A DNA stretch of 64,000 bases from Patescibacteria group bacterium (GTDB lineage: Bacteria; Patescibacteriota; Saccharimonadia; Saccharimonadales; UBA4665). The notes beneath the pieces are model-generated. The model ran no database searches. It saw only the letters and a program-made list of their open reading frames with translations, and was not told the origin of the DNA. A program made the translations under genes and the position numbers. Shown here piece after piece: positions 49,349 through 64,000 of this stretch; the stretch's first letter is position 1; the number at the start of each line of letters is the position of its first letter. The stretch spans positions 37,342-101,341 of the forward strand of contig JBBTTE010000004.1 of NCBI GenBank assembly GCA_038064395.1, read 5' to 3'.

Positions 49349-50881
49349 ATGCGACAAAAACAGGCTCTGAGGGTAATGATTGATGGTGGAAATGTTTTCC
49401 TGACGGGAGCACCGGGTGCGGGCAAGACATATGTCCTCAACCAGTTCGTGAAGCGAGCTCGAAACGCCGGCAAGCGCGTGGCTGTGACGGCAAGCACCGG
49501 CATCGCCGCTAGCCATATTAGCGGCACAACTATTCATTCATGGTCGGGACTGGGTATTCTGGATCACTTGAGTGAAGAAGACCTTGATAGGCTATCCAAG
49601 GCCGATCGTTTAGTTAAGCGTTACAACAGCACTGACATTCTTATTATTGATGAGGTCTCCATGTTGCACGGCAAGCGTCTCGACATGGTCAACCAGCTGG
49701 CCAAGGTGCTGCGCCAGAGTGAAGAACCCTTCGGTGGTATGCAGATTATCCTAGTGGGCGACTTGTTCCAGTTGCCACCTATAAGTCGCGGTACTCGCGA
49801 GTTTGACTTCATACATCTCTCGGCGGCATGGGCCGAGCTTAATCCGCAGATTTGTTATCTGACCGAGCAGCATCGCCAGCAGGGCAACGACGAGCTACTG
49901 CAAATCCTAGAGGCCATGCGTCTAGGCCAAGTCGATGATACGCATGGCGACTTATTGCAGGAGAGTCTGGCCAAGGATGTGCCCGAGGGTCTAGTCGTGA
50001 CCAAACTCTATTCTCACAATATAGATGTTGACGCTATCAATCAGAGACACTTAGACGAACTGGATGGCCGTAGCTACAACTTCCAAATGCGCACCAAAGG
50101 CAGCAGGGCCAAACTCGATCAGCTAGCCAAAAGCTTACTCGCTCCTGAGATATTGGAACTAAAAGTCGGAGCAGAAGTGATGTTCGTGGCTAACAACTTT
50201 GCCGATGGCTTCGTGAACGGTAGTCGTGGCAAAGTAGTGGAGCTGGATGCCGAAGGCCCAACCGTTAAGCTTCATAATGGCAAGAAGATTACGGTAGAGC
50301 CGCACAGCTGGAGTCTAAGCGAGGATGGCAAAGTCCGCGCCGAAGTCACGCAACTGCCACTGCGACTAGCCTGGGCTATCACGATCCACAAGAGCCAAGG
50401 CATGAGCCTAGACGCAGCTGAGATCGATCTATCACGGGCCTTCACACCAGGTATGGGGTATGTGGCATTGAGTCGTGTTCGTAGTCTCGATGGTCTATAT
50501 CTCAAAGGCGTCAATAATACTGCCATGGCCATGCACTCACAGATTTATGACTTGGACTCGCTGCTCCGTAGTGCCTCATCAGAACTTGGCGGCAGCGTTG
50601 AAGACATAGCTGACGAGGTAATAATTGCCAAGACCGAGCCAATTGTTGATGAAGCTCTGTTCGTCAAGCTCAAGGACTGGCGGCACAAAAGAGCCGCTGC
50701 CGACAAGCTTCCAGCTTTCATGATCGCCCACGATGCAGCCCTTAGTGCGGTGGCCTCGGACAAGCCAACCACGCCGCAGCAACTACTTGGCTTGAGTGGA
50801 TTTGGCGCCCGCAAAGTCGAAGCCTACGGAACCGACATACTACAAATCGTCGCCGCTCACAGCGCCTCTCGAGCAGCCTAG
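49349..50881 (+). CDS. PIF1/RecD-like SF1 helicase with C-terminal HRDC-like domain
   Basis: Walker A LTGAPGAGKTY, Walker B ILIIDEVSM and the motifs LVGDLFQLPP and AITIHKSQG are present. The C-terminal LFVKLKDWRHKRAAADKLPAFMIAHDAAL..LLGLSGFGARKVEAYG resembles an HRDC domain. Confidence 0.8.
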   Translation: MRQKQALRVMIDGGNVFLTGAPGAGKTYVLNQFVKRARNAGKRVAVTASTGIAASHISGTTIHSWSGLGILDHLSEEDLDRLSKADRLVKRYNSTDILIIDEVSMLHGKRLDMVNQLAKVLRQSEEPFGGMQIILVGDLFQLPPISRGTREFDFIHLSAAWAELNPQICYLTEQHRQQGNDELLQILEAMRLGQVDDTHGDLLQESLAKDVPEGLVVTKLYSHNIDVDAINQRHLDELDGRSYNFQMRTKGSRAKLDQLAKSLLAPEILELKVGAEVMFVANNFADGFVNGSRGKVVELDAEGPTVKLHNGKKITVEPHSWSLSEDGKVRAEVTQLPLRLAWAITIHKSQGMSLDAAEIDLSRAFTPGMGYVALSRVRSLDGLYLKGVNNTAMAMHSQIYDLDSLLRSASSELGGSVEDIADEVIIAKTEPIVDEALFVKLKDWRHKRAAADKLPAFMIAHDAALSAVASDKPTTPQQLLGLSGFGARKVEAYGTDILQIVAAHSASRAA

Positions 50882-51042
50882 TTATTAAATAAACATTAAT
50901 TGTTCAAATTTCGCTAATCTCCAAATAACAGAGAAAGAATAGCCATACACAAGGCCGAAACCGTACAAAAAATGGTGTTAAAACCTTGACCGCAGCAGCC
51001 ACCAAACGCCATCATGAGCCCACTAATATTTAGGAGGCCATG

Positions 51043-51624
51043 ATGCGCAAACCCCAAAAACCCAGACTAATTCTAAGCTCGCTAGGCGTTATGATGTTGG
51101 CAATAATTGCAGTTAGTGGCGTGACATTCGCAGCCCTGCAGAGCCAACAGAATGTCCTAACTGGCAACACGGTTGAGACTGCCACGGCTAATCTAGGGCT
51201 GAGCACGGACGGCATTAATTATGGTGATTCGAGGGTCGGCTTCGACTTCAATAATCTAATGCCAGGTGGAGCGGCCATGCCGATTGCGGGGCACGGCTTC
51301 TATCTCAAGAATGCTGGTGGCACTGCCTTGGCCCTCAAGCTCATGGTCAGTAGTACGCCCAGCAACCCCAATGGCATAGATCTGAGCAAGGTAAATATTC
51401 TACTGACTACCGTTGGTAGTGGCAACCCAGCGCAGAGCTTCAGTCTTCAATCTTTGGCAACAGCTGCGTCGAGTGGCGGTCTGCCAATCACTGGAAGTAT
51501 CGCTAGTGGCACAACAGGGCAGTACAAGCTACAGATACAGATGGCAGCAGACGCCGTAACTGGACAGGGTGCTCAGCTAGGTGGTATCGACTTCGCCTTC
51601 GGAGGCGTAGCCCAGAGCAACTAA
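51043..51624 (+). CDS. secreted protein with SipW-type (TasA/camelysin-like) signal-peptide region
   Basis: The protein begins MRKPQKPR, followed by a TM helix and SGVTFAALQSQQNVLTGNTVETATANLGLS. This matches the G-x-T-F/Y-A-x-F/L ... GN-x-F/V-x-A/T-G/A-x-L pattern of TasA-class proteins. An AGGAGG SD lies at 51032-51037. Confidence 0.55.
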   Translation: MRKPQKPRLILSSLGVMMLAIIAVSGVTFAALQSQQNVLTGNTVETATANLGLSTDGINYGDSRVGFDFNNLMPGGAAMPIAGHGFYLKNAGGTALALKLMVSSTPSNPNGIDLSKVNILLTTVGSGNPAQSFSLQSLATAASSGGLPITGSIASGTTGQYKLQIQMAADAVTGQGAQLGGIDFAFGGVAQSN

Positions 51625-51646
51625 GCTATGCCCGCAGGATCGGCAG

Positions 51647-51655
51647 TGTTAGACT
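51647..51655 (+). promoter_or_regulatory. extended -10 TGtTAGACT, 6 nt before the ATG at 51662
   Basis: Read directly from the sequence. Confidence 0.45.
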
Positions 51656-51661
51656 ATAGGC

Positions 51662-52231
51662 ATGAGACGGAAGAGTCAGAAGACCAATAACTACGCCTTT
51701 ATAGACAGCCAGAACCTTAACCTCGGAACTCAGCGCATGGGTTGGAAGCTGGATTGGCGCAAATTCCGCCAATTCCTAGAGGATAAGTACGGTGTTACGC
51801 ATGCCTACACCTTCATCGGCTACATGAGCGAGAACGAGTCTATGTACGAGTACATGCACGAGCTAGGCTATCTGGTTGTGCTCAAACCGACAATCGATGT
51901 CACGGCTCAGCACGAAGCCGAGAATCCCTCGGACAAACCCAAGCCCGCTGGCGATAAGGACAAGGACAAGCCAATCATCAAGGGCAACGTAGACGCCGAG
52001 CTAGTGCTCTACGCTATGAAAGAGCTGCCCAACTACGACCAAGCCATAATTGTCAGTGGTGACGGCGACTTCTTCAGCCTAGCCGAATACCTAGAAGAAC
52101 AGGGCAAACTATCCCAAATCCTAACCCCCAACTGGCAATACTCTAGTCTACTTAAGACCTTCGATGACAAGATCACTAGACTAGATCAATTAAGGCGTCA
52201 GCTCAGCTACCACGATCGGAAGAAGAAATGA
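51662..52231 (+). CDS. NYN domain (LabA/DUF88-like, PIN-fold) protein
   Basis: YAFIDSQNLNLG, GNVDAELVL and IIVSGDGDF are present. A K/D/P-rich insertion is also present. Confidence 0.75.
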   Translation: MRRKSQKTNNYAFIDSQNLNLGTQRMGWKLDWRKFRQFLEDKYGVTHAYTFIGYMSENESMYEYMHELGYLVVLKPTIDVTAQHEAENPSDKPKPAGDKDKDKPIIKGNVDAELVLYAMKELPNYDQAIIVSGDGDFFSLAEYLEEQGKLSQILTPNWQYSSLLKTFDDKITRLDQLRRQLSYHDRKKK

Positions 52232-52824
52232 GAGATATACTACTTTTCCTCAGCGGGTTGTTGACCATAGTTTGTGTGATTCCGTATTGCATAGATATTG
52301 TTAAACGCCAGACTAAGCCGCGCATCGTATCTTGGTTCAATTGGACTCTATTAACAGGTATTGCCACGGCTGCTGCCATCGCAGACAAGCAATGGCCAAG
52401 TGTTGTTCTGACCGGGTCTGCAACGGCAGCCACAATGATGATCGTTATTCTTGGCATCAAGTATGGCGACACCAAGATCGAGCCCCTAGACGTCGTTTGC
52501 CAGATAGGTGCTGTGATCGGATTGGTCCTGTGGCTAGTTTTCAACAGCCCACTGATCGCCATCATAATGAGTGTCGGTATCGACTTCTTGGTCGGTTTAC
52601 CAACTTATAAGCACGCCTATAAGAAGCCCCATGAGGAGACCAAGCTGACTTTTATAATTGCTTTTGTCGCGGCATTATTGGCGCTACTGGCTATTGATGA
52701 TCCGCAGGCCTCAGGGTTGATTTTCCCGATATATCTCTCGCTAGCTAATCTTCTTATTATCAGCATACTCCAGTTCAGCCCCAATATTGTATCAGCAAAA
52801 CCTAAGGCCAAAGCCCAAGCATAG
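52228..52824 (+). CDS. membrane protein with an internally repeated 3-TM layout (possible PQ-loop/SWEET-like, weak)
   Basis: 6-7 TM helices. Two similar loop motifs (VIPYCIDIVKRQTKP and GLPTYKHAYKKPHEE) are present. The start overlaps the NYN gene stop (ATGA). Confidence 0.45.
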   Translation: MRDILLFLSGLLTIVCVIPYCIDIVKRQTKPRIVSWFNWTLLTGIATAAAIADKQWPSVVLTGSATAATMMIVILGIKYGDTKIEPLDVVCQIGAVIGLVLWLVFNSPLIAIIMSVGIDFLVGLPTYKHAYKKPHEETKLTFIIAFVAALLALLAIDDPQASGLIFPIYLSLANLLIISILQFSPNIVSAKPKAKAQA

Positions 52825-52881
52825 CTTGTCTATAAGGCGTATACTAAAACAAGTACAAAACTAACCTAACCTCTATTATTA

Positions 52882-53511
52882 ATGAAGATTACCAAATACA
52901 TGCACTCTTGTTTGCTTGTCGAGACTCCAGATAGAGTCGCAATCTTTGACCCTGGCGTAATGAGCGTCGAAGCTCTCAGCGGCGTCAAGCTCGATCGACT
53001 CGACGACATTTTCATAACCCACGTTCATCATGATCACTTTGATATTGGCCTTGTTAAGGGCTTTGTCGCTCAATTCCCAGACGTCCGAATCACGAGCACA
53101 CCAGAGGTTGTAGCCAAGCTGGAGGCTGAAGGCATCAAGGCCACCGACCAACCATCAGATGGACTTGCATTCTTTGACTCGCCGCATGAGCAGATCCATG
53201 ACCCAACAGCTACGCCTCAACAAGTCGGAATTCACTACCTAGGCCAGCTCAGTCACCCCGGTGACAGCCACAGCTTCACAGAGACCAAAGCCATCTTAGC
53301 CCTACCAATGCAAGCGCCATGGGGCAGTAACGTTCGTGCCTACAATCTGGCACTCGAGCTTAAGCCCCAGCACGTTCTACCTATTCACGATTGGCATTGG
53401 AATGACACCGCCCGCCAGCAGGCTTACGATCGTTGCGAGCAGCTCCTAAGCGCGCAGGGCATTAAGTTCCATCAACTTAAAACCGGCCAGCCAGTCACAA
53501 TCGACCTCTAG
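52882..53511 (+). CDS. MBL-fold metallo-hydrolase
   Basis: The HxHxDH motif is present as THVHHDHF, with downstream His/Asp ligands. The length is 209 aa. Confidence 0.8.
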   Translation: MKITKYMHSCLLVETPDRVAIFDPGVMSVEALSGVKLDRLDDIFITHVHHDHFDIGLVKGFVAQFPDVRITSTPEVVAKLEAEGIKATDQPSDGLAFFDSPHEQIHDPTATPQQVGIHYLGQLSHPGDSHSFTETKAILALPMQAPWGSNVRAYNLALELKPQHVLPIHDWHWNDTARQQAYDRCEQLLSAQGIKFHQLKTGQPVTIDL

Positions 53512-53538
53512 TCACGCGCATTCCACCAAAGCATAACC

Positions 53539-53567
53539 TTGACAAAAAGCATAATTCTTGCTAGAGT
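53539..53567 (+). promoter_or_regulatory. near-consensus promoter TTGACA-17-TGcTAGAGT, 8 nt before the ATG at 53576
   Basis: Read directly from the sequence. Confidence 0.6.
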
Positions 53568-53575
53568 ACTAAGTG

Positions 53576-53860
53576 ATGTCAATCAAAAATAAAAACACTA
53601 AAACAATCGACAGGCTAGCTGAAACAGCTCAGCAAGCTGGTCTTGTCCTAATGGCCGCCGCAGTTACCATCGGTATGGTAGAAGTCAGCGAACACCTTAG
53701 GAAGGTAGTCGTGCCAACTTCAGCGACCTTTGCCGTAGAGGCAAATGCACCACAGGGCGGCCACGATAATCCAATTCGCCGTGACCGTGAAGAGACCGGT
53801 CCGCACTACGTAAGTTATAGTGCATTCCAACGAACACCAGCTCGCAGCGGTAAGATTTAA
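53576..53860 (+). CDS. small single-TM hypothetical protein (orphan)
   Basis: 94 aa with one hydrophobic helix (AGLVLMAAAVTIGMV) and its own strong promoter. Confidence 0.45.
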   Translation: MSIKNKNTKTIDRLAETAQQAGLVLMAAAVTIGMVEVSEHLRKVVVPTSATFAVEANAPQGGHDNPIRRDREETGPHYVSYSAFQRTPARSGKI

Positions 53861-53863
53861 CCA

Positions 53864-53892
53864 TTGACAAAAATAAGCATATAAGGTATGAT
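53864..53892 (+). promoter_or_regulatory. near-consensus promoter TTGACA-17-TATGAT, 6 nt before the ATG at 53899
   Basis: Read directly from the sequence. Confidence 0.6.
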
Positions 53893-53898
53893 ACAACT

Positions 53899-54480
53899 AT
53901 GAACACAACAGCCCAAGAACTACCATCCGACGCATCTAACGAAGCAATTGCTCAGGCCTTCGACAGGTCAAAGGCCGAATCTGATGCCAAGCGTGCCCAA
54001 GCCGAGTCTAAGGGTCTGGCGCGTGCTGGAGAGATAGGACTTAAGTTCTTAGGAGGCGCAGTCATGGCTGGCCTAGCCGTTGCTGCTATAGCACATGGCG
54101 TGAAGGGCAACAGTGAATACTACGACCGAGCCAACGGCGACCTTGCTGCTAATGTAGCCGCCCAGACTGCATCGAACAAGGCATCCTACGCAAGCAGCGA
54201 GGCTAGCAAGAAGGTGGACTACAGCCTACCTGTGATTAAGGGTGAAGGAATTAACGCCGTAACCCAAGAAGTTAATGAGGCCGGCGGCCACGTGGCAGGG
54301 CCCGAAGCCATTGTTTATAGCGATGGCACTGTAACTGACACGACTGAGATGTCAGCTGATGACTTGCGGGCTCGATCAGCGGCTCTACCTGCCGACAGTC
54401 AGTTGGTATATCCTGTTTTGCCTCAGGTTGGCCAGAAGGCCGAACAAGCCATAGCCCAGCAAACAGCACAATCTGAATAG
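53899..54480 (+). CDS. single-TM hypothetical protein, Ala/Ser/Gln-rich (orphan)
   Basis: 193 aa with one central hydrophobic helix (LGGAVMAGLAVAAIAHGV). A clear terminator follows. Confidence 0.5.
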   Translation: MNTTAQELPSDASNEAIAQAFDRSKAESDAKRAQAESKGLARAGEIGLKFLGGAVMAGLAVAAIAHGVKGNSEYYDRANGDLAANVAAQTASNKASYASSEASKKVDYSLPVIKGEGINAVTQEVNEAGGHVAGPEAIVYSDGTVTDTTEMSADDLRARSAALPADSQLVYPVLPQVGQKAEQAIAQQTAQSE

Positions 54481-54518
54481 AACAATCTAGATAGCTCAAT
54501 AGCGCCCCGCGCGCGGCT

Positions 54519-54547
54519 AACCACGCTACATAGCGTGGTTTTTGGTT
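54519..54547 (+). terminator. rho-independent terminator
   Basis: AACCACGCT-ACAT-AGCGTGGTT forms a perfect 9-bp stem, followed by TTTGGTT. Confidence 0.8.
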
Positions 54548-54607
54548 CTTATCTGTAAAACCTGTGGATAAGTGGTGTCAGAATCGCTGCGTTTTTATTA
54601 TTTGTAG

Positions 54608-54636
54608 TTGCAGGGGGTGATTGTGGGTAGTACACT
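54608..54636 (+). promoter_or_regulatory. candidate Pmra promoter TTGCAG-17-TACACT upstream of mraZ
   Basis: TTGCAG lies at 54608-54613 and TACACT at 54631-54636. It overlaps the TGGG repeats. Confidence 0.5.
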
Positions 54637-54661
54637 CAGTTCAGTGGGTAGAAATGGTAAG
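54612..54661 (+). promoter_or_regulatory. direct GTGGGTAG repeats (candidate MraZ operator)
   Basis: GTGGGTAG occurs at 54623-54630 and 54644-54651, 21 bp apart. Degenerate copies GGGGTGA (54613-54619) and ATGGTAAG (54654-54661) lie about 10 bp from them. Confidence 0.5.
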
Positions 54662-54719
54662 GCAAAACAGCTTACCAGATCGAAAAATAAAAAAACCACT
54701 AGCAGCTTAAGGGACATCA

Positions 54720-55097
54720 ATGGCAACGGTAGATTACTTCGAACGCAAGCTTGACGACAAGCGAAGGCTGACTATTCCGCCTGAACTTCGTGATAAGTTC
54801 GCGAGCGGGGCAGTAGTTACCAGAGGCTTTGGCCAATACCTGCATCTTTATCCCAAGGATGTATGGGAAAACTTGGTTGAGCCACGACTTGCTGGCGATA
54901 TCCTCGACGAGCGCATAGCAGACCTGAACATCCAATTCCGGATGGGCAAGGTCGACATGCAGCCCGACGGTAAACAGGGGCGCATCACGCTCGAGCAACA
55001 TTTGCTCGATTACTCCGGCATTAGCCGCGATGTGGTCGCTGTAGGAGTCGGACAGTACTGGCGTTTGATGGCTCCCGAGGCCGCAACTACCAAGTAA
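54720..55097 (+). CDS. mraZ: transcriptional regulator MraZ
   Basis: Two SpoVT/AbrB-like half-domains are present (DDKRRLTIPPELR and DGKQGRITLEQHL). It is the first gene of the dcw cluster. Confidence 0.85.
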   Translation: MATVDYFERKLDDKRRLTIPPELRDKFASGAVVTRGFGQYLHLYPKDVWENLVEPRLAGDILDERIADLNIQFRMGKVDMQPDGKQGRITLEQHLLDYSGISRDVVAVGVGQYWRLMAPEAATTK

Positions 55098-55356
55098 GCT
55101 CGCAGCTCATTAACAATTCAGACGAATAGTTACTATCCTCAATCGAGGCCAGCTATTCGACAATCAACAAGTGGAAATAGATAGCAAACCACTATAAAAA
55201 AGGGCTTTGCACCTTTCAAAAACACCTCCCAAAACTCCACCTCACACATAAGTCTCTCAAAACTTAGATTCTCGGCGAAAAGTATTTATACATTTGGCTT
55301 AGAATCAAACAAAAACAAAAATTTCTCAAAAAACAAAAAGTTGATTGTCGATTAGG

Positions 55357-55380
55357 TGACCTTGCATGTAAGCAAGGTCA
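55357..55380 (+). other. stable hairpin in the mraZ-rsmH spacer
   Basis: TGACCTTGC-ATGTAA-GCAAGGTCA forms a perfect 9-bp stem. Confidence 0.55.
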
Positions 55381-55391
55381 AGCTAATACAA

Positions 55392-55406
55392 GGGCGCGCA
55401 AGCCCC
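55392..55406 (+). other. GNRA (GCAA) tetraloop hairpin in the mraZ-rsmH spacer
   Basis: GGGCGC-GCAA-GCCCC forms a 5-bp stem with one bulged C. Confidence 0.45.
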
Positions 55407-55450
55407 ATGGATCAGCTTGAACCTTGTAAAACAAAAACAAACAAGACAAG

Positions 55451-56365
55451 ATGCACCAAAACAAACACCAAAATAAACACAAACAGCACGTACCAGTATT
55501 ACTAGAGGAAGTTCTACAGTATCTGGATCCGAAGGCAGGGGAATCATACCTCGATCTGACGGCCGGTTACGGTGGACACGCCAAGGAAATACTAGAACGG
55601 ACTGGAAGCCTCACACAATCAGTGCTGGTTGACCGCGATAATAATGCGATCAACGTTCTCCGCGAGGAGTTCGGACCGGACACTGTGGACTTGCGGCAAT
55701 CAGACTTTCTGACTGTCACACAAGAGTTGATCGCCGAAGGGCGGCAATTCGACCTTATTTTGGCTGATTTGGGCGTATCGTCACCGCACCTTAACGAGGG
55801 CAAACGTGGTTTTGCCATTAACCAGAACGGTCCACTCGACATGCGAATGGACCAATCGCAGGAACTAACTGCCGAAACTATAGTTAATACTTATAGCGAG
55901 GCAGCTTTAGTCGATATTCTGCAGCGTTACGGCGAAGAACCGAAGGCTAAGCAGATCGCCAATCTGATTGTGACTAACCGACCATTCGGTAGCACAGATG
56001 AGCTGGCAGCGATTGGTAGCAAGGCATGGACGGGATATAGTCGGGTTCATCCGGCGACCAGAACTTTTCAGGCGCTGCGTATTGCAGTCAATGACGAGCT
56101 AGGGTTGCTTGAGAAGAGCTTGCCTCTGTGGTTTGATCTGTTAGCAGACGGTGGTCGCATCGCCATCATCAGCTTTCACAGCCTAGAGGATCGATTGGTT
56201 AAGCAAGCCTTGCAGGAAGTCGCCGGCGAACGTTACGACGCAGATCTACGATTACTTACCAAGCGTCCGGCTACTGCTAGCCCCTCAGAATTAGTTTTTA
56301 ATCCGCGAGCTCGTAGTGCTAAACTACGCGCCGCAGTGAAAATAAAAAAGAAAGGGAACAACTAA
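55451..56365 (+). CDS. rsmH: 16S rRNA (cytosine1402-N4)-methyltransferase RsmH (MraW)
   Basis: HVPVLLEEVL, LDLTAGYGGHA and ADLGVSSPHL are present. An N-terminal HQNK repeat is encoded by the A/C-rich leader-like sequence. Confidence 0.95.
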   Translation: MHQNKHQNKHKQHVPVLLEEVLQYLDPKAGESYLDLTAGYGGHAKEILERTGSLTQSVLVDRDNNAINVLREEFGPDTVDLRQSDFLTVTQELIAEGRQFDLILADLGVSSPHLNEGKRGFAINQNGPLDMRMDQSQELTAETIVNTYSEAALVDILQRYGEEPKAKQIANLIVTNRPFGSTDELAAIGSKAWTGYSRVHPATRTFQALRIAVNDELGLLEKSLPLWFDLLADGGRIAIISFHSLEDRLVKQALQEVAGERYDADLRLLTKRPATASPSELVFNPRARSAKLRAAVKIKKKGNN

Positions 56366-56441
56366 TGCCTATCCAGGTAAAAAGTAGCTCCCGTGCTTAC
56401 AAAATCCACGTCAAAGTGGTTTAAGTAAGCAAGTAGCGGAT

Positions 56442-56464
56442 CCAGCCTCCCAAACAGAGGCTGG
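56442..56464 (+). other. hairpin between rsmH and ftsL
   Basis: CCAGCCTC-CCAAACA-GAGGCTGG forms a perfect 8-bp stem. No U-tract follows. Confidence 0.45.
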
Positions 56465-56505
56465 ACCTAAGATCATCTCACAAACTTAAAAACAAAAATA
56501 AACAA

Positions 56506-56853
56506 ATGACATACTCAAGTTCCTTAGCCATGAATCGTACTCGATATCAGGGCCGCAACCAGAACTCAGTTAGCTTCCAAGCCACAACACGGACGCTTGG
56601 ACCAATCAGCAATACCATTACGCTGATCGTTCTAGCATGCCTACTTGGCCTGTTGTATCTGACTCAGGTAACCAAGACTAACGCCTACGGTTACCAGATC
56701 AATACATTGCAGCAGAAGCAGGCTAGTCTCAAGACCCAGCACGACGACCTGGAAGTCGATTCGGCACGCTTACAATCCCTTAGCCGTGTCAGCGAAAGTC
56801 CAGTAGCCAAGAGTCTGGTATCAGTTGCGCCTTCAGCCACCGCCAAAAACTAA
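56506..56853 (+). CDS. ftsL: cell division protein FtsL-like (single TM plus coiled coil)
   Basis: The position between rsmH and ftsI, one TM helix (ITLIVLACLLGLLYL) and a short coiled coil support the call. Confidence 0.7.
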   Translation: MTYSSSLAMNRTRYQGRNQNSVSFQATTRTLGPISNTITLIVLACLLGLLYLTQVTKTNAYGYQINTLQQKQASLKTQHDDLEVDSARLQSLSRVSESPVAKSLVSVAPSATAKN

Positions 56854-56913
56854 AGCCCTATTATTGGTCACTTCGACATCTCGGGGCCAAAGTTTTATAA
56901 TTAAGGGGTAAAT

Positions 56914-58680
56914 ATGGCTTTGCCAAAAACAAACGACGTCAGCCAAGCAGTTACTCGAATCCGTATCTGGTACGGACTACTTATTCTTGTGCTGGCGATC
57001 TTTGGCCTTCGATTGTTCTACATCCAAATTATCCATTACAACCACTATCGTAACGCTGCGCTGAGCGATCAGCTCAAGCAATACGAGATTCCAGCCCGAC
57101 GGGGAATTATAAGGGCTCATGATGGCGCACAAGAGCTGCCAATTGTTCTCAACCAGCAACTATTTACCTTATATGCTGACCCAGTTTATATTAAGCACGC
57201 TGATCAGGCGGCCGCCAAGGTAGTGTCGGTTATGGGTGGTGACGCTTCCAAGTACGAGCAGCAAATGAAGACCAAGGATACGCGTTACGTGATACTAGCT
57301 AAGAAGTTAAGTCGTGAACAGCAGGATAAGATAGTCGCCCTCAAGATACCTGGCGTAGGAACGCAGGAGCAAGATTATCGTACTTACCCGCAAGGCAGCT
57401 TGGTGTCCCAGGTGCTAGGCTTCGTTAACGATGAGAACATCGGCAAGTACGGCATTGAGCAAGCACTTAACAAGCAACTTAGGGGCACGCCAGGCGAACT
57501 AAAGGCGATTACTGATGCCAGCGGTGTGCCGCTAGCTGCTAGCCGTGATAATACGCGAACTGCACCCAAGAATGGTGACGACATAACTCTAACAATTGAC
57601 TTGGCCTTGCAGCAACAGTTGGAAACTATCCTAGCCAAGGGTGTTAAGGACTACAAGGCCACGGCCGCCAGCGCGCTCATTATGGACACTAAGACTGGCG
57701 CCATCAAGGCCATGGCCAATGCGCCGACCTATGATCCAAGCAAGTATTCCCAGGTTGAAGACCCAAGCGTCTTCCAGAATGCTTCCGTATCGCACCCCAT
57801 AGAAGTCGGTTCATCGATGAAGACTCTAACTACGGCGGCAGCCCTAGATCAAGGAGTGATTAAGCCGACTACGACTTACTATGATCCTTCTAAGTGGAGG
57901 GTCGATGACTTCACAATTACCAACATTGAAGAAGATGGCGGGGCAGGTACTCGCAGTGTGACCGATATTCTTAACTTATCGCTTAACACTGGTGCGACGT
58001 GGGAGTTAATGCAAATGGGCGGAGGCGACATTAATTCCAAGGCTCGTAACGCTTGGTATGAGTACATGGCCAATCACTACATGTTCGGTAAGTTGACAGG
58101 CATTGAGCAGGGCTATGAGGCAAGTGGCTACGTCCCGGCACCTAAGGATAATGGCGCCGGTATTGACCTGACCTACGCCAACACATCATTCGGTCAGGCC
58201 ATGACAGCTACGCCGGTGCAAATGGCAGCAGCGTTGGCCTCGGTTGTTAATGGCGGCACTTACTATCAACCATACTTAGTCGATAAGACTACTCATTCTG
58301 ACGGCCAGACCACCGATACTAAGCCGAAGGTGATCAAGAAACACGTGGTTAGCCAATCTACGACCCAAGCAATAGTTCCGATGATGCAGTACGTTGTTGA
58401 TCATCACAACTTCACGCCCAAATTCGATCAGTCAGCCTACGTTGTCGGTGGCAAAACCGGCACGGCCCAGATAGCCAAGCCTGGCGGAGGCTACTATGAC
58501 CACCTGTTCAACGGTACCTATGCTGGCTTCGTCGGTGGCAACGTTCCACAGTACGTCATTGTAGTGTTCGTCAACAAACCAACCAACGGCGGCTATGCTG
58601 GTACCGCTGCCGCTCAACCTATCTTTGGCGCCTTGGCGCACCTGTTGATAAATAATGCTTATGTAATACCCAAAAACTGA
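56914..58680 (+). CDS. ftsI: class B penicillin-binding protein (FtsI-type transpeptidase)
   Basis: A TM anchor, a PBP dimerisation domain, and the motifs SxxK (GSSMK), SxN (SLN) and KTG (GKTGTA) are present. Confidence 0.92.
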   Translation: MALPKTNDVSQAVTRIRIWYGLLILVLAIFGLRLFYIQIIHYNHYRNAALSDQLKQYEIPARRGIIRAHDGAQELPIVLNQQLFTLYADPVYIKHADQAAAKVVSVMGGDASKYEQQMKTKDTRYVILAKKLSREQQDKIVALKIPGVGTQEQDYRTYPQGSLVSQVLGFVNDENIGKYGIEQALNKQLRGTPGELKAITDASGVPLAASRDNTRTAPKNGDDITLTIDLALQQQLETILAKGVKDYKATAASALIMDTKTGAIKAMANAPTYDPSKYSQVEDPSVFQNASVSHPIEVGSSMKTLTTAAALDQGVIKPTTTYYDPSKWRVDDFTITNIEEDGGAGTRSVTDILNLSLNTGATWELMQMGGGDINSKARNAWYEYMANHYMFGKLTGIEQGYEASGYVPAPKDNGAGIDLTYANTSFGQAMTATPVQMAAALASVVNGGTYYQPYLVDKTTHSDGQTTDTKPKVIKKHVVSQSTTQAIVPMMQYVVDHHNFTPKFDQSAYVVGGKTGTAQIAKPGGGYYDHLFNGTYAGFVGGNVPQYVIVVFVNKPTNGGYAGTAAAQPIFGALAHLLINNAYVIPKN

Positions 58681-58697
58681 GCGCAAATCACCAGAAA

Positions 58698-58706
58698 TGA
58701 TATAAT
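58698..58706 (+). promoter_or_regulatory. extended -10 TGaTATAAT upstream of mraY (short A-rich leader, no SD)
   Basis: The ATG at 58725 lies 18 nt after the -10. Confidence 0.4.
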
Positions 58707-58724
58707 AAAACAAAAAGAACACCT

Positions 58725-59765
58725 ATGAATACCTTGCACCTTGCTATCACAACCCACGAACTAACTCGCATACTGTCGTTAGGCTTCTTCGGCTTTGTTC
58801 TGAGCATGCTGATTACGCCGATATATACGAGTATCGCTTATAAATACCAGTGGTGGAAACGCCAACGTACTGAGGCTTGGTCGGGCGGGGCAGCGACTGT
58901 CTATCAGAAACTCCACGCAGCTAAGCACAAACGCAACATTCCGACGATGGCAGGACTAATCTTTGTCTTCTCTATTTCACTTGTCACTCTGGCCCTTAAT
59001 CTAAGCCGTGGAGAGACGTGGTTGCCGCTAGCTGGACTGGTCGCTGCGTCCGGGATTGGCTTACTTGATGATCTTATGAATATTAGGGGTGAAGGTGGCG
59101 GCGTGGCAGGTATGAGCGCGCGGGTTAAGTTTGCTCTATATAGTCTGATTGTGTTGATTGGTGGCTGGTGGTTCTACGCTAAGCTAGGGGTCAACACTAT
59201 ATATTTGCCTTGGATTCATCACTGGCATGTCGGCATATTTGTGATTGCTATCTTCTGGCTGGTGGTTGTATCGACAGCAATTTCGGTTAATATCAGCGAC
59301 GGCTTAGATGGTTTGGCTGGCGGGCTGCTGACTTCTTCGTTCATGGCCTATGCCATTATCGCCGCTGTTGACCATAAGTTTGCGCTAGCTGGCTTCTGTC
59401 TTACTGTCGTTGGAGCTCTGCTGAGCTACACTTGGTTCAATATCTATCCGGCGCGTTTCTTCATGGGGGATACGGGTTCTTTTGCCTTAGGCACGGCGCT
59501 CGGAATAATTGCGCTCCAAACGGATACAGTCTATATATTGCCAGTTATTGGTGCGGTATATGTCATGGAAACAGGCTCAGTCATTATCAACCGCACATCA
59601 CGTAAGCTTCGAAACGGTAAGAAAGTCTTCTTGTCGTCACCAATTCATCACCACTTCGAGGCGATTGGTTGGCCAGAGACTAAGGTTACCATGCGTTTTT
59701 GGATTCTTGGACAGATAGCTAGTGTGATCGGGCTAATTATCTTTCTAACTAGCGGTCAGGTTTAG
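58725..59765 (+). CDS. mraY: phospho-N-acetylmuramoyl-pentapeptide transferase
   Basis: GLLDDLMNIRG and NISDGLDGLAGG are present, with 10 TM helices. Confidence 0.95.
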   Translation: MNTLHLAITTHELTRILSLGFFGFVLSMLITPIYTSIAYKYQWWKRQRTEAWSGGAATVYQKLHAAKHKRNIPTMAGLIFVFSISLVTLALNLSRGETWLPLAGLVAASGIGLLDDLMNIRGEGGGVAGMSARVKFALYSLIVLIGGWWFYAKLGVNTIYLPWIHHWHVGIFVIAIFWLVVVSTAISVNISDGLDGLAGGLLTSSFMAYAIIAAVDHKFALAGFCLTVVGALLSYTWFNIYPARFFMGDTGSFALGTALGIIALQTDTVYILPVIGAVYVMETGSVIINRTSRKLRNGKKVFLSSPIHHHFEAIGWPETKVTMRFWILGQIASVIGLIIFLTSGQV

Positions 59766-59769
59766 TCTA

Positions 59770-61005
59770 ATGAGACCGCAAGCCGCAGAACGACGTCGGC
59801 CACCTGGGCTTGCTAACCTTAGCCTGGGTCGCAAGCATCGACCTGACTACTGGCTGATGATCTGGTGCGCGGCGCTCCTAGCGATCGGCCTGATTGTTGT
59901 TTATGCCATAAGTCCAGCGCTTAGTGCGGCTCACCACGTTACTGGTAACTACTATGTCGGTAAGCAATTACTGGCTATTGGCTTGAGTATCATAGCTTTT
60001 ATCGTAACGGCCAATGTGCCATTACAGTGGTGGCGTCAGGCGTATAAGCCATTACTGATTGCGGCCGCCATCGCGACTTTCCTAGCGCTTATTATCCCAG
60101 TTAATCCAGCTTATCCAGCCCATCGTTGGGTTCGCTTGGGTAGCTTGTCCTTCCAGTCGGTGGAGTTAGTGAAGTTCGCCATGATGATCTGGATGGCAGG
60201 TTTCTTGTCCCAGAGAATCAAGCAGGGCACTATAAGCAGTACCAATTTGACCCTCAAACCGATTCTAATAGCCCTAGGAGCGATTGGAGTGATAGTTGTG
60301 GGCGTTCAGAGCGATCTTGGCTCAACGGGCGTTATGGTGGCTATGATGGCGACTATGGCATTTGTGGCAGGACTACCGATGGGGCGCATCTTCTTGATAG
60401 GTGGGGTTGTAGCCATTGGTCTAATCATGGCAGTCTCAGCCACCCCCTATCGGCGCGAAAGACTACAGAGCTTCATACATCCTGATGCACATTGTCAGAC
60501 CAGTGGTTATCAGGCTTGTCAGGCTCTCATTGCGGTTGGCTCGGGTGGAATAATTGGCTTGGGTCTTGGTAGTAGCGTGCAAGCCTATGGCTATCTACCA
60601 GAGGCGGCCAATGACTCGATCTTCGCTATTTATGCTGAGAAATTCGGCTTTATCGGCAGCATTATTCTACTTGCCGTTTTCATTGCTTTCTTCTCTCGGC
60701 TTAAGAGTATTGCCGAGCGTTTACCAGATGACTTTAGTAGACTATTGGTAGTCGGCGTCTTGGCCTGGCTGAGCATCCAGACAATTATTAATGTTGGTGC
60801 GATGATCGGTCTATTACCGCTCAAAGGTATTACCTTGCCATTTATCAGTTACGGCGGTACCAGTGTGGTGTTCGCGGCAGCTGCAGTCGGATTGGCGTTC
60901 CAAGCCTCGCAATATGCAGCTTATGACACGCCACGTATTCGTGATCGCCTAGGTGATGGAAGTGGCAGCCGGCGCAACAACAATCTCAGGAGGGTAGAGT
61001 ATTGA
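59770..61005 (+). CDS. ftsW: SEDS family peptidoglycan polymerase FtsW/RodA
   Basis: 10 TM helices, the motifs PEAANDSIFA and LPLKGITLPFISYGGTS, and the position in the dcw cluster support the call. Confidence 0.92.
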   Translation: MRPQAAERRRPPGLANLSLGRKHRPDYWLMIWCAALLAIGLIVVYAISPALSAAHHVTGNYYVGKQLLAIGLSIIAFIVTANVPLQWWRQAYKPLLIAAAIATFLALIIPVNPAYPAHRWVRLGSLSFQSVELVKFAMMIWMAGFLSQRIKQGTISSTNLTLKPILIALGAIGVIVVGVQSDLGSTGVMVAMMATMAFVAGLPMGRIFLIGGVVAIGLIMAVSATPYRRERLQSFIHPDAHCQTSGYQACQALIAVGSGGIIGLGLGSSVQAYGYLPEAANDSIFAIYAEKFGFIGSIILLAVFIAFFSRLKSIAERLPDDFSRLLVVGVLAWLSIQTIINVGAMIGLLPLKGITLPFISYGGTSVVFAAAAVGLAFQASQYAAYDTPRIRDRLGDGSGSRRNNNLRRVEY

Positions 61006-62168
61006 GTACCATAGTTCTAACTGGCGGCGGATCAGGCGGACACATTACGCCGCTCTTAGCCATAGCTACAGAACTAAAGCGTCTCGAGCCCGACACTAAG
61101 ATTGTCTACATCGGTCAGCGCGGTGATAACCTCGGTGATATACCTGCTGCACACAAAGCAATTGATCAGGTTCTGACTGTCAGAGCTGGTAAGTTTCGGC
61201 GCTATCATGGCGAAAGCTTACTTAGGCAATTGCTCGACGTTCCGACTATGTTCAAGAATATACGCGACCTCTTCTATGTCTTGATCGGTACCGTACAGAG
61301 TTGGCGCTTACTACGCGAGTTACGACCACAAGTGATATTCATTAAGGGCGGCTTCGTCGGGGTGCCGGTTGGCTTGGCTGCTGCTGCGCTGAATATTCCA
61401 TATGTCACGCATGATTCTGACGCTATACCAGGGCTAGCTAACCGTATTATCAGTCCCTGGGCTGATAAGCATGCCGTTGCGCTCCCGATAGACAATTACA
61501 AATACCCATCGTCCAAAGCTGTAATGACTGGTATTCCGTTGCAGGCCGACTTCAAGCCAGTTGCAGATGACCTTAAGCAAAAGTATCGGGAGTCACTCAA
61601 GTTGCCAGCCGCTGCCAAGGTGCTGTTTATCATTGGTGGTGGCCTGGGGTCACAGCGCGTTAATCAAGCTGTTGGAGAGGCTGTGCCACATCTGTTACAT
61701 GAGTTCCGGGACCTGTATGTTATTCACGCCGTAGGTCGAGCAAATCAGACCGATATGAAGCAGCTTTATGCCAAGCTACCTGAGGCAGAGCAGGGGAGGC
61801 TACAGGTGCACGACTACCTCAACGATGTCTATCGCTACAGTGGTGCCGCCGATGTAATTATAACTAGGGCAGGGGCGACTAATCTGGCCGAATTCGCACT
61901 GCAGGGTAAGGCTTGTATAGTTGTGCCTAGTCCGTTCTTGGCAGGTGGTCATCAACTCAAGAACGCCCAGTATTTATCTGACAAAGGCGCCGCCGTGGTG
62001 CTGGACGAAACCGACCTAGCCAACGACCCCAACAGATTAGCCAAACAAGTCAGTGATCTGCTCAGTGATCCCAAGGAGCGCCAAAGCCTGGGCGCTGAGC
62101 TATCCAAGTTCGCTAAGCCCAATGCAACTCAAGAGCTGGCTCAATTAATCTTAGAGCAGAAGGCATGA
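61002..62168 (+). CDS. murG: undecaprenyldiphospho-muramoylpentapeptide beta-N-acetylglucosaminyltransferase
   Basis: LTGGGSGGHITPLLAIA and ITRAGATNLAEF are present. Confidence 0.93.
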   Translation: MSTIVLTGGGSGGHITPLLAIATELKRLEPDTKIVYIGQRGDNLGDIPAAHKAIDQVLTVRAGKFRRYHGESLLRQLLDVPTMFKNIRDLFYVLIGTVQSWRLLRELRPQVIFIKGGFVGVPVGLAAAALNIPYVTHDSDAIPGLANRIISPWADKHAVALPIDNYKYPSSKAVMTGIPLQADFKPVADDLKQKYRESLKLPAAAKVLFIIGGGLGSQRVNQAVGEAVPHLLHEFRDLYVIHAVGRANQTDMKQLYAKLPEAEQGRLQVHDYLNDVYRYSGAADVIITRAGATNLAEFALQGKACIVVPSPFLAGGHQLKNAQYLSDKGAAVVLDETDLANDPNRLAKQVSDLLSDPKERQSLGAELSKFAKPNATQELAQLILEQKA

Positions 62169-63091
62169 GATTACGCCGTAGCCAGCCCCAAACTCGTCGC
62201 CAAAGGCTCCAGAGCGAAGAACCAAGCCGACCATCAAGCAGTTTTTCTTATCGTTCCCGTAGATCTGATAGATCACGCGAAAATGGACGTCAGAAGCAGT
62301 ACGAGAACACGAAGCGGCAGACCGCCAGACTAGGCCGTTACTGGTTGCAGCGTTTCGGTCTGTTGGCCTTGTTATTGGCTATTATTGTCTCGGCTTTTAA
62401 CGTCCTGAGTCTTTCTACTAATGCCCGCGTCTTACCACTTACAACCGATAGTAGCCGTTCGTTCTTACGATCGACTGAGGACTATGAGGCAGCCGCCAGC
62501 AAACTACTTGGCTCATCACTGTGGAATCACAACAAAGTAACAGTCAATACGGCGCAGATTAGCGGTGCTATGCTCAAGCAGTTCCCAGAATTAACAGATG
62601 TAACTGTGACAGTACCGCTGTTCTCGCACAGGCCAATAGTGTATGTTGAGCCTGCCCAGCCGGCTCTGATATTGGTGGCCAAGAATGGCTCGTTTGTCGT
62701 TGATAACAAAGGCAAAGCCCTGCTACTAGGCAGTAGCCCAGCCTCTCTTAATCAGCCCAAGCTACCTGTTATCAATGATCAAGGCGGACTTACCATTAAG
62801 CTGAACCGCCAAGCCCTATCTGCGGCCAATGTCGACTTCATACAAACTGTACTAGGCCAGCTGAATGCTAAGAAGCTGGCGATAACAGGTATGACGCTAC
62901 CTGCAGCTACCAGTGAGCTAGATGTCGTGGTTGCAGGGCAGCCCTTCGTAGCGAAGTTCAATCTCCAGAGCAATAACGCAAGAGGGCAGGCAGGTACTCT
63001 ACTGGCTACGCTAGATACTCTCAAGAAGCAGAACATAGTACCGACTAAGTACATCGACGTGCGGGTCGATGGCCGCGCGTATTACCAATAG
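62165..63091 (+). CDS. ftsQ: cell division protein FtsQ/DivIB-like with Arg/Ser-rich N-terminal extension
   Basis: The position after murG, a single TM helix (FGLLALLLAIIVSAF) and a POTRA-like extracytoplasmic domain support the call. Confidence 0.7.
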   Translation: MRLRRSQPQTRRQRLQSEEPSRPSSSFSYRSRRSDRSRENGRQKQYENTKRQTARLGRYWLQRFGLLALLLAIIVSAFNVLSLSTNARVLPLTTDSSRSFLRSTEDYEAAASKLLGSSLWNHNKVTVNTAQISGAMLKQFPELTDVTVTVPLFSHRPIVYVEPAQPALILVAKNGSFVVDNKGKALLLGSSPASLNQPKLPVINDQGGLTIKLNRQALSAANVDFIQTVLGQLNAKKLAITGMTLPAATSELDVVVAGQPFVAKFNLQSNNARGQAGTLLATLDTLKKQNIVPTKYIDVRVDGRAYYQ

Positions 63092-63113
63092 TCCCCCTGT
63101 TCTACTACCCCGC

Positions 63114-63128
63114 TTGTTCGTATTTTGT
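63114..63128 (+). repeat. left copy of the exact 15-bp direct repeat TTGTTCGTATTTTGT
   Basis: It is identical to 63673-63687. Confidence 0.85.
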
Positions 63129-63137
63129 TCGGCATTC

Positions 63138-63177
63138 TTATATCTTCGTAATATCAAAAAAACTATATAAACATATC
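63138..63177. repeat. weak phased ATAT array (family copy E)
   Basis: ATAT cores start at 63140, 63151 and 63173 on an 11-bp lattice. CTATATAA at 63163-63170 is slightly off-phase. Confidence 0.4.
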
Positions 63178-63322
63178 ACAATGCCAAAAAGTCAAATTTT
63201 TGCAAAATTGTCGGACGTGCAGGGAAGTTAAATATTTATAACAATATGGCGAAAAAGCAATAGTTTCACGGCAATACTGTGGAAAAGTCAAATAGTGCTA
63301 CAAATCACATTCAAGCACTAGG

Positions 63323-63368
63323 CCTATATAGGGGGCTATATAGTGGCATGATCTATATGAAGGCATAG
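63323..63368. repeat. cluster of CTATATAG palindromes (family copy D, imperfect phasing)
   Basis: CCTATATAG lies at 63323-63331, GCTATATAG at 63335-63343 and TCTATATGA at 63352-63360. The spacings are 12 and 17 bp. Confidence 0.45.
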
Positions 63369-63672
63369 AGCGCCGGCGTAGTGCAGCGTTAAACAGCAAA
63401 CGTGCAAATCGTAGCCGTAACCCCTAAATACTTCCCTACAGCAGGGGTACACGAACTCATCTATTAATCAGATATGCGAGTCGCAAAATATACATTGTGC
63501 GACACGATGTCTATAGCTCGAACTTGCAACCTAACCCGCCCGCACTCACTGATTTATTTATCGCCTGCGCGTTTTTGGTTTGATAATTTTGTCGCGTGCC
63601 TGCTCCACTGCCATAGTCCTGCTACATTGCCGTACTTCACAAATGCCTATCCAACAATCACCCACACTATGT

Positions 63673-63687
63673 TTGTTCGTATTTTGT
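63673..63687 (+). repeat. right copy of the exact 15-bp direct repeat TTGTTCGTATTTTGT
   Basis: It is identical to 63114-63128. Confidence 0.85.
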
Positions 63688-63699
63688 ACAGTTTATATA

Positions 63700-63981
63700 T
63701 TATTGATGACGAGCCAGCTGCTCAATAAATACAGCTGCCTTCTCGAGCTTCTTACGGGCTTTCTGGGTGTGAGGAGTTAGCCGAACATTCTCTGATTCTT
63801 GGATATAGCTCTCCTTGCCGAACTTGGTCGATAAACTGTCTTCTCCGTGGAGCTTTGGCTTTCCTAGATAAAGCGTGTGTCGCTTGCTTTGGCCGTTGAC
63901 CGTGATTTCGAAGAAGGCTTGGTTGGCTTGCAAGAAGTAAAGTTGTCTTTGGCGGCGGTCTTCGTAGCCATTTGCAGACAT
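63700..63981 (-). CDS. hypothetical 93-aa basic protein
   Basis: Complete ORF running from the ATG at 63981 to its stop at 63700. No family was recognised. It lies next to the window edge. Confidence 0.4.
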   Translation of the reverse strand: MSANGYEDRRQRQLYFLQANQAFFEITVNGQSKRHTLYLGKPKLHGEDSLSTKFGKESYIQESENVRLTPHTQKARKKLEKAAVFIEQLARHQ

Positions 63982-64000
63982 TCTTCCGATTGTAGGAATC

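Follow-up and report, generated by a model that had tools for sequence, protein, structure and literature searches.

A probable dif locus in a conserved ~600-bp intergenic module of Saccharimonadales

The DNA considered here is a 64,000-nucleotide stretch (the window; C4:37342-101341) of contig C4 of a Patescibacteria genome from the order Saccharimonadales, which comprises 942,914 bp in eight contigs. Its subject is an island at window positions 63092-63699 that, judged from sequence comparison, is very probably the chromosome's dif locus: a site served by a single Xer recombinase, guided by FtsK through FtsK-orienting polar sequences (KOPS), and set in a lineage-specific module of ~600 bp. 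The island lies between convergent open reading frames (ORFs), is non-coding (longest ORF inside at most 84 aa; no mobile-element genes among its ORFs) and has a G+C content of 41.1% vs 48.8% for the window. A sequence-only reading had singled it out for an exact 15-bp direct repeat, TTGTTCGTATTTTGT, downstream of a gene in the ftsQ position, and the repeat is confirmed at 63114-63128 and 63673-63687, with 544 bp in between (559 bp start-to-start). On both strands of the whole genome the 15-mer is confined to these two copies, here called R-left and R-right, and the 12-mers inside it are likewise restricted to the same two places; it is not a common genomic word, and shuffled windows gave a mean of 0.12 matches to it at ≤2 mismatches.

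Several described systems resemble this locus in part. XerCD/dif with FtsK-KOPS (Escherichia coli, Vibrio; CodV/RipX in Bacillus subtilis) likewise has a single-copy 28-bp site of 11-6-11 layout, a gamma-domain FtsK, a G-rich polar word converging on the site (here GCAGGG; the longer GGGCAGGG, a subset of (A)GCAGGG(Y), fits the E. coli KOPS consensus GGGNAGGG; PMC5357621), and integrase-less elements of the type of integrative mobile elements exploiting Xer (IMEX) that make use of the site. Unlike XerCD/dif, the locus described here is paired with one recombinase, not two, has distinct arms (GTCGYAAAA / TTGTRCGAC), lies 33-131 kb off the GC-skew shift and sits within a conserved module of ~600 bp. 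XerA/dif of Thermococcales and other archaea (PMC2958812) also combines a single recombinase with a dif site apart from the xer gene; the Thermococcales sites lie 120-142 degrees from oriC (116-143 here) rather than 180, at the summit of a polar-word skew and with conserved flanking sequence. Archaea, however, are without FtsK, their polar words are 4-mers and their conserved flanks extend over ~23 bp, whereas this system has a gamma-domain FtsK, a KOPS-like word and ~600 bp of conserved flanks.

XerS/difSL of streptococci and lactococci and XerH/difH of Helicobacter and Campylobacter are FtsK-dependent single-recombinase systems with xer beside the site, an arrangement also found in 10 other Patescibacteria lineages. 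They differ from this locus in that difSL is 31 bp long with an 11-bp centre, difH has other arms, and xer in this genome lies on another contig than the core; the XerS model gives the Xer of this genome 124 bits against a cut-off of 267. Plasmid cer/psi sites (PepA/ArgR or PepA/ArcA) resemble the island in joining an Xer core to a few hundred bp of conserved, accessory-like non-coding DNA, but there the accessory DNA, ~180 bp that PepA binds with ArgR or ArcA, adjoins the core on one side, whereas here such DNA stands on both sides, 35-365 bp away, and the site is chromosomal with FtsK/KOPS guidance evidently present. The dif/Xer/FtsK-KOPS system is a core chromosome-maintenance system, and a full-text literature search found no description of it for Saccharibacteria or other bacteria assigned to the candidate phyla radiation (CPR). 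With this locus come an exactly placed site, a candidate for the guide word and a system in which one recombinase occurs together with FtsK; the pairing of a single Xer with FtsK stands between the bacterial XerCD and archaeal XerA systems.

The 28-bp core and its probable recombinase

The island is assigned as dif because of the layout of its core, its single copy, its breadth across the phylum, the machinery encoded by the genome, linkage to xer in other lineages, a switch in polar words and the insertion of elements at this point. The core is the following feature:

63478..63505, plus strand: dif core GAGTCGCAAAA-TATACA-TTGTGCGACAC, a 28-bp imperfect palindrome of 11-6-11 layout

Its arms match as an inverted repeat at 9 of 11 positions around the 6-bp centre. 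In a scripted comparison it shared 17-18 of 28 positions with E. coli dif (NC_000913.3, 1,590,750-1,590,777); for archaeal dif sites the agreement with the bacterial consensus is 14-18 of 28 positions (PMC2958812). The sequence-only reading had listed two inverted repeats here, GTCGCA-12 nt-TGCGAC at 63480-63503 and CCCCT...AGGGG at 63421-63446, and both are present in the sequence; the first was rightly picked out but was taken for a mere hairpin, when it very probably is the Xer/dif core.

The core is unique in its genome at ≤8 mismatches, and it is also single-copy in two complete relatives from other genera and families, G013 and G027. A 24-nt degenerate pattern derived from it occurs in at least 119 Patescibacteria records of a species-level genome collection, one per stretch, where about one chance match would be expected; the bearers include Saccharibacteria, Paceibacterota, Woese-, Shapiro-, Campbell- and Nomurabacteria, and Minisyncoccia. 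Outside Saccharimonadales conservation is limited to the core itself and the flanks are not kept. The core is intergenic in all four loci with listed ORFs, between convergent genes in three (this genome, L036 and L041) and upstream of xer in the fourth (L085).

The genome encodes a single PF00589 tyrosine recombinase of 306 aa, which scores as XerC/XerD/XerA and exceeds the curated NCBIfam cut-off for XerA alone, and an FtsK with 4TM, alpha, motor and gamma domains (gamma, PF09397, at 97.8 bits). Among 95 loci from outside the island-bearing group, 10 have an xer homologue 0.36-1.04 kb from the core, 49-52% identical in nine of them. Together these data strongly support the prediction that the 28-bp core is the recombination site of the genome's single Xer-type recombinase. 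In the proposed mechanism, the gamma domain of FtsK would be steered to the core by the polar word (A)GCAGGG(Y), and Xer bound to both arms would exchange strands across the 6-bp centre, resolving chromosome dimers at division.

Mobile elements in relatives also meet the chromosome at this point. The core pattern is found in 29 IMG/VR contigs, two small ones of which encode an inovirus-type Zot-like assembly ATPase; a single one of the 29 has an integrase match, and a weak one. In locus L230 the order is ftsQ homologue, R-left, the nonamer TGTGGAAAA, full core, a 5.5-kb element, a hybrid core (AATATCGCAATATACATTGTGCGACAT, with the same centre and right arm as the core) and R-right, the last at its usual distance, 197 bp past the hybrid core. 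The element is integrase-less and inserted exactly at the core: an arrangement that shows the IMEX pattern, with strand exchange predicted within the core, and that marks the core as an integration hotspot for integrase-less phages of these bacteria. The sequence-only reading had proposed a site-specific recombination locus; this stands insofar as relatives use the Xer/dif core as an attachment site, but the 15-mers themselves are not attachment (att) sites. In the IMG/VR contig L231, three identical R copies (GTTCTATTTTTGTTC) occur at 1805, 2536 and 7782 around the dif core, and a second hybrid core lies 5.3 kb from the dif core; the inserted element may carry an R box of its own.

Polar words and position on the chromosome

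The word GCAGGG converges on the core. Its plus:minus counts are 38:2 in C4:1-100.4 kb and 5:26 in the tail of C4 together with contig C1, which was placed after C4 by synteny with a congener, and the strand reversal is significant in this genome (Fisher p = 2.9e-12) as well as in G013 and G027 (1.4e-8 and 9.3e-6). An unbiased word scan returned GCAGGG as the top 6-mer directed towards the island (64:7), with the related words AGCAGGG (33:2) and AGGGCAG (28:1), and inside genes the bias does not depend on how they are oriented (27:2 and 8:0 ahead of the island, 1:11 and 2:13 beyond it). The cumulative maximum of GCAGGG is at 63441, which is 39 nt away from the palindrome's first base at 63480; the corresponding distances to the core are 99 bp in G013 and 243 bp in G027. 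At close range, conserved blocks on both sides of the core hold GCAGGG-type words directed at it, and the word at 63441-63446 ends 31 nt before the core.

In Saccharimonadales FtsK would be guided by the candidate word (A)GCAGGG(C/T), which overlaps with AGGGCAG; an example is the plus strand of the window at 49879-63446. The words directed towards the core in the 95 other CPR loci were AGGGAAG (147:9), AGGGGAG (169:21) and GGGCAGGG (25:1). AGGGAAG and AGGGGAG take the place of GCAGGG in other CPR lineages, and the words of both groups have an AGGG core in common with E. coli KOPS. The B. subtilis SpoIIIE recognition sequence (SRS) has the same AGGG core.

Classical bacterial dif sites coincide with the GC-skew shift, and in this respect the position of the core speaks against its assignment as dif. 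In this genome no change of skew sign occurs within the island or over at least the next 83 kb. In G013 (805,326 bp) the core, at 426 kb, lies 131 kb (16.3% of the chromosome) from the skew maximum at 295 kb; in G027 (669,327 bp) the maximum lies 33 kb from the core (zone C1 226-260 kb). The core is found 116-143 degrees from the origin (116-119 in G013, 134-143 in G027), not at the replication terminus as given by the skew shift at ~180 degrees from oriC, and a dif site off the skew terminus is unusual for an FtsK-bearing bacterium. On skew alone, which does not flip at it, the island was rejected as terminus; the polar words showed that dif and the skew terminus are two separate places.

The zone of G013 between the two points, 295-426 kb, has a mixed character: its skew is like that of the short arm, in genes of both orientations, whereas its GCAGGG polarity and gene-orientation bias are like those of the long arm. 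Across G013, G027 and this genome (C4 tail plus C1, where the skew terminus is at least 83 kb from dif), the gene-orientation bias switches at dif and not at the skew maximum, so that most genes in between are oriented head-on to the inferred fork. Whereas dif is the point of convergence for polar words and gene orientation, the skew flips elsewhere, so that properties that normally coincide are split; this split makes it testable whether replication or segregation sets chromosome polarity.

The module around the core

Around the core, the island contains the following features:

63114..63131, plus strand: R-left, TTGTTCGTATTTTGTTCG, copy 1 of the 15-mer, motif GTTCG-N5-TGTTC
63156..63175, no strand: conserved A/T block, AAAAAAACTATATAAACATA, spaced ~42 bp to R-left and ~120 bp to the TGTGGAAAA box
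63187..63197, minus strand: box AAAAGTCAAAT, copy 1, conserved, TTGACT in reverse complement
63219..63225, plus strand: KOPS-like polar word GCAGGGA, conserved, directed at the core
63251..63270, no strand: block GAAAAAGCAATAGTTTCACG, conserved and unique in its genome
63278..63297, no strand: block TGTGGAAAAGTCAAATAGTG, starting with the DnaA-box-like nonamer TGTGGAAAA and holding copy 2 of AAAAGTCAAAT
63430..63447, plus strand: ACTTCCCTACAGCAGGGG, opposed KOPS-like words, with the last plus-strand GCAGGG at 63441-63446
63506..63516, no strand: right flank of the core, GATGTCTATAG, conserved, consensus ATCATGTCTATG
63599..63612, minus strand: CCTGCTCCACTGCC, moderately conserved, its reverse complement carrying GCAG(N)GG-type words that point left to the core
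63673..63689, plus strand: R-right, TTGTTCGTATTTTGTAC, copy 2 of the 15-mer, motif GTTCG-N5-TGTAC, conserved

A DNA search found the island in the same position in 38 of 41 related genomes from 17 families of one order. Alignment of 19 and then 41 island-type genomes gave sharply conserved blocks with variable DNA between them, in the order GTTCG-N5-TGTTC (copy 1), AAAAAAACTATATAAACATA, AAAAGTCAAAT, GCAGGG(G/A)A, GAAAAAGC..TTTCACG, TGTGGA(A/T)AAGTCAAATAGTG, CCCCTGC-A-GCAGGGG, the palindrome GAGTCGCAAAATATACATTGTGCGACAT, CCTGCTCTGCC and TGTTCGTATTTTGTAC (copy 2). The motif of both R copies is GTTCG-N5-TGT(T/A)C, located ~364 bp left and 195 bp right of the 28-bp palindrome. The GTTC and TGTTC of R-left are conserved in at least 90% of the 41 genomes, and the box consists of two TGTTCG-type hexamers 11 bp apart. 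R-left lies 320-400 bp left of the core in all island-type genomes and R-right 181-237 bp right of it in the 35 distinct genomes in which both copies could be paired; the spacing from core to R-right (~190-200 bp) is kept across genomes, and those from R-left and from the A/T block to the TGTGGA box are fixed at ~163 and ~120 bp.

These comparisons bear on what the 15-mers are. The sequence-only reading saw in them an att or target-site duplication scar or the borders of a decayed mobile element making up the 544 bp between them, as an exact repeat confined to two places in the genome and an AT-rich non-coding island might suggest. However, the island and both copies follow the same gene in those 38 of 41 genomes, the relatives of the order showed no empty site with one copy of the 15-mer, and real insertions in relatives hit the central core rather than the R boxes. 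Conservation of the island with both copies across the order and the lack of an empty site rule out a recent insertion scar, and the R boxes as remnants of any insertion are scarcely credible. In most relatives the A/T spacers of the two R copies are not alike, and the copies agree at 10-19 of 23 positions; the exact 15-mer of this genome is therefore a conserved motif with spacers that happen to match. The copies do co-vary within genomes: they share 15.2 of 23 positions vs 14.06, with a permutation p of 2e-4.

Long conserved non-coding blocks between convergent genes, together with two conserved short hairpins, could also point to a structured RNA of ~450-600 nt, as the sequence-only reading had proposed as an alternative. 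An Rfam scan returned nothing above chance (two eukaryotic matches with chance-level E-values), and RNAalifold on 34 genomes, run on three segments and both strands, gave zero consensus pairs in the left half. The sole helices are the dif palindrome and the opposed-KOPS palindrome. At the variable pair of the core stem the changes are single, C to T in the left arm in four genomes and G to A in the right arm in four, and with single changes of both kinds neither strand is favoured. The core, moreover, occurs across Patescibacteria without conserved flanks. An RNA gene is very unlikely.

The left half could alternatively be a replication element, either an additional origin or a DnaA-titrating or DnaA-regulating locus like datA or the DnaA-reactivating sequences (DARS), placed beside dif. 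The nonamer TGTGGAAAA is one mismatch off TTATCCACA and is replaced by TGTGGATAA in other genera; several genera carry a perfect box; TGTGGA.AA shows no variation among 19 genomes and stands 179-243 bp left of the core; the A/T-rich block stands at its fixed ~120 bp; and the same box variant, TTTTCCACA, occurs in the rpmH-dnaA spacer. Yet the island has one such box only. The GC-skew minimum of this genome is on contig C3, at dnaA and a three-box rpmH-dnaA spacer, where gene orientation also diverges, and G013 and G027 have one skew minimum each. On these grounds the island was rejected as oriC, and a replication or DnaA-regulating role for its left half is improbable. The rpmH-dnaA spacer (G000:C3:102560-103100) itself has only three DnaA-box-like nonamers, and no 600-bp window anywhere in the genome has four or more; the origin of this genome appears to be box-poor. 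A parS site was considered and rejected as well: block 5 has a half-site only, and a better parS-like site lies near the origin.

Most likely, the boxes of the dif module bind proteins and assist or control the Xer reaction. R-left and R-right would be the outer boxes of a module of ~600 bp in Saccharimonadales, comprising the A/T block, two TTGACT boxes, the DnaA-box-like nonamer and, on either side of the core, KOPS-like words directed at it. The island alone has the R boxes, the A/T block, both AAAAGTCAAAT boxes and the TGTGGA(A/T)AA block; AAAAAAACTATATAAACATA remains unique in its genome at ≤4 mismatches, and AAAGTCAAAT is found just twice, both times in the island. The two AAAAGTCAAAT boxes form a direct repeat (D2) with a spacing of 96 bp, copy 2 lying at 63283-63293. 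The hexamers of the R box, 11 bp apart, would suit a tandem-dimer site, and the motif TGTTC-N6-TGTTC presumably resembles the direct-repeat sites of response regulators (ArcA boxes). The TTGACT boxes may be bound by the neighbouring protein with Sigma70_r4 and HARE-HTH domains.

Two results count against such a function of the boxes. R-type motifs are not enriched outside the island in this genome (27 occurrences of GTTC-N7-GTTC vs 31.6 expected; the version with an A/T spacer is confined to the island), and with no enrichment elsewhere there is no regulon to point to a binder; a genome-wide regulon site was rejected on the same counts. Nor do other CPR lineages have such repeats around their dif: flanking direct repeats as a general feature of CPR dif sites were rejected too, their distribution at 75 other loci being equal to that of the control. 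In one Candidatus Nanosyncoccus locus that is without R boxes (L060), an exact 40-bp direct repeat, ACCACATCGCGCAGCTTCCGAAATGCAGTGAATGAAGTAA, flanks the core at about -255/+273.

The R boxes and nearby blocks might instead have no relation to Xer and act as roadblocks or insulators that end two convergent transcription units lacking intrinsic terminators. The stop codons lie close to the boxes, one 22 bp ahead of the start of R-left and the other 10 bp past the end of R-right, and promoter and terminator scans, otherwise uninformative, gave no terminator-like site in the region. Against this, both R copies have the same orientation despite the converging transcripts, R-right is conserved while the downstream gene varies, and in L230 R-right keeps its 197 bp to the hybrid core and so travels with the core and not with the neighbouring gene. 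We consider roadblocks unlikely, and binding sites serving the Xer reaction remain the preferred explanation of the boxes.

A more far-reaching proposal can be put forward tentatively: the dif core may be the centre of a dedicated nucleoprotein module of ~600 bp that controls a single-Xer, FtsK-guided reaction, with up to ~16% of the chromosome stably separating the segregation axis from the meeting point of the replication forks. Its parts would be the R boxes at the edges, the TTGACT boxes (possibly bound by the Sigma70_r4/HARE-HTH protein), the DnaA box and the opposed-KOPS palindrome, and the segregation axis would consist of dif, the polarity of KOPS-like words and the gene-orientation bias. 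If this were true, chromosome-arm polarity in these reduced genomes would be set by segregation and not by replication. In the order consensus the opposed words, CCCCTGC-A-GCAGGGG, form a perfect 7-1-7 palindrome of two KOPS-like heptamers 35-55 bp left of the core; in this genome its left arm is decayed (CCCTAC).

Neighbouring genes and other core-bearing contigs

The genes next to the island are the following:

62165..63091, plus strand: gene in the ftsQ position, last of a division and cell wall (dcw)-like cluster, 308 aa, with its stop 22 bp before R-left
63700..64000, minus strand: 3' part of a convergent 177-aa ORF without family match, a variable neighbour that extends past the window
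L002:3599-4648, just past the window end, minus strand: Sigma70_r4 and HARE-HTH protein, 349 aa, a conserved neighbour on the far side of the island

To the left of the island, the dcw-like cluster runs ftsI-mraY-ftsW-murG and is followed by the 308-aa gene. The sequence-only reading had called this gene ftsQ: its position after murG agrees, but its product has no Pfam or NCBIfam match, not even to POTRA or FtsQ, at E≤5, and the name is owed to position only. The gene is conserved in relatives despite the lack of a family match: of 43 island-type loci, 38 have a homologue directly upstream of the island and all 43 have murG/ftsQ homologues ahead of it. A dif core stands downstream of murG, in the same orientation and at 1-6 kb, in 43/43 island-type loci and in 29/95 other Patescibacteria loci; dif seems to have long been linked with the end of the dcw cluster in the phylum.

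On the far side, the 'small basic orphan' of the sequence-only reading (63700-63981) may be the 3' part of the 177-aa ORF that runs beyond the window end; R-right ends 10 bp before the stop of this convergent gene. Beyond it follow the Sigma70_r4/HARE-HTH protein, topA and dprA. The 349-aa protein combines an N-terminal Sigma70 region 4 with a HARE-HTH domain of the type of the RNA polymerase delta subunit, and has a homologue downstream of the island in 32 of 43 island-type loci.

The core pattern and the polar word can be used to orient and check CPR assemblies. Contigs of metagenome-assembled genomes labelled Gammaproteobacteria, Pseudomonadales or Bdellovibrionales carry a CPR-type core (L051, L083, L084, L031, L047, L055, L074 and L089), and three of them, L051, L083 and L084, also encode an Xer ~50% identical to that of Saccharibacteria. 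These are probably CPR contigs that were mis-binned or mislabelled.

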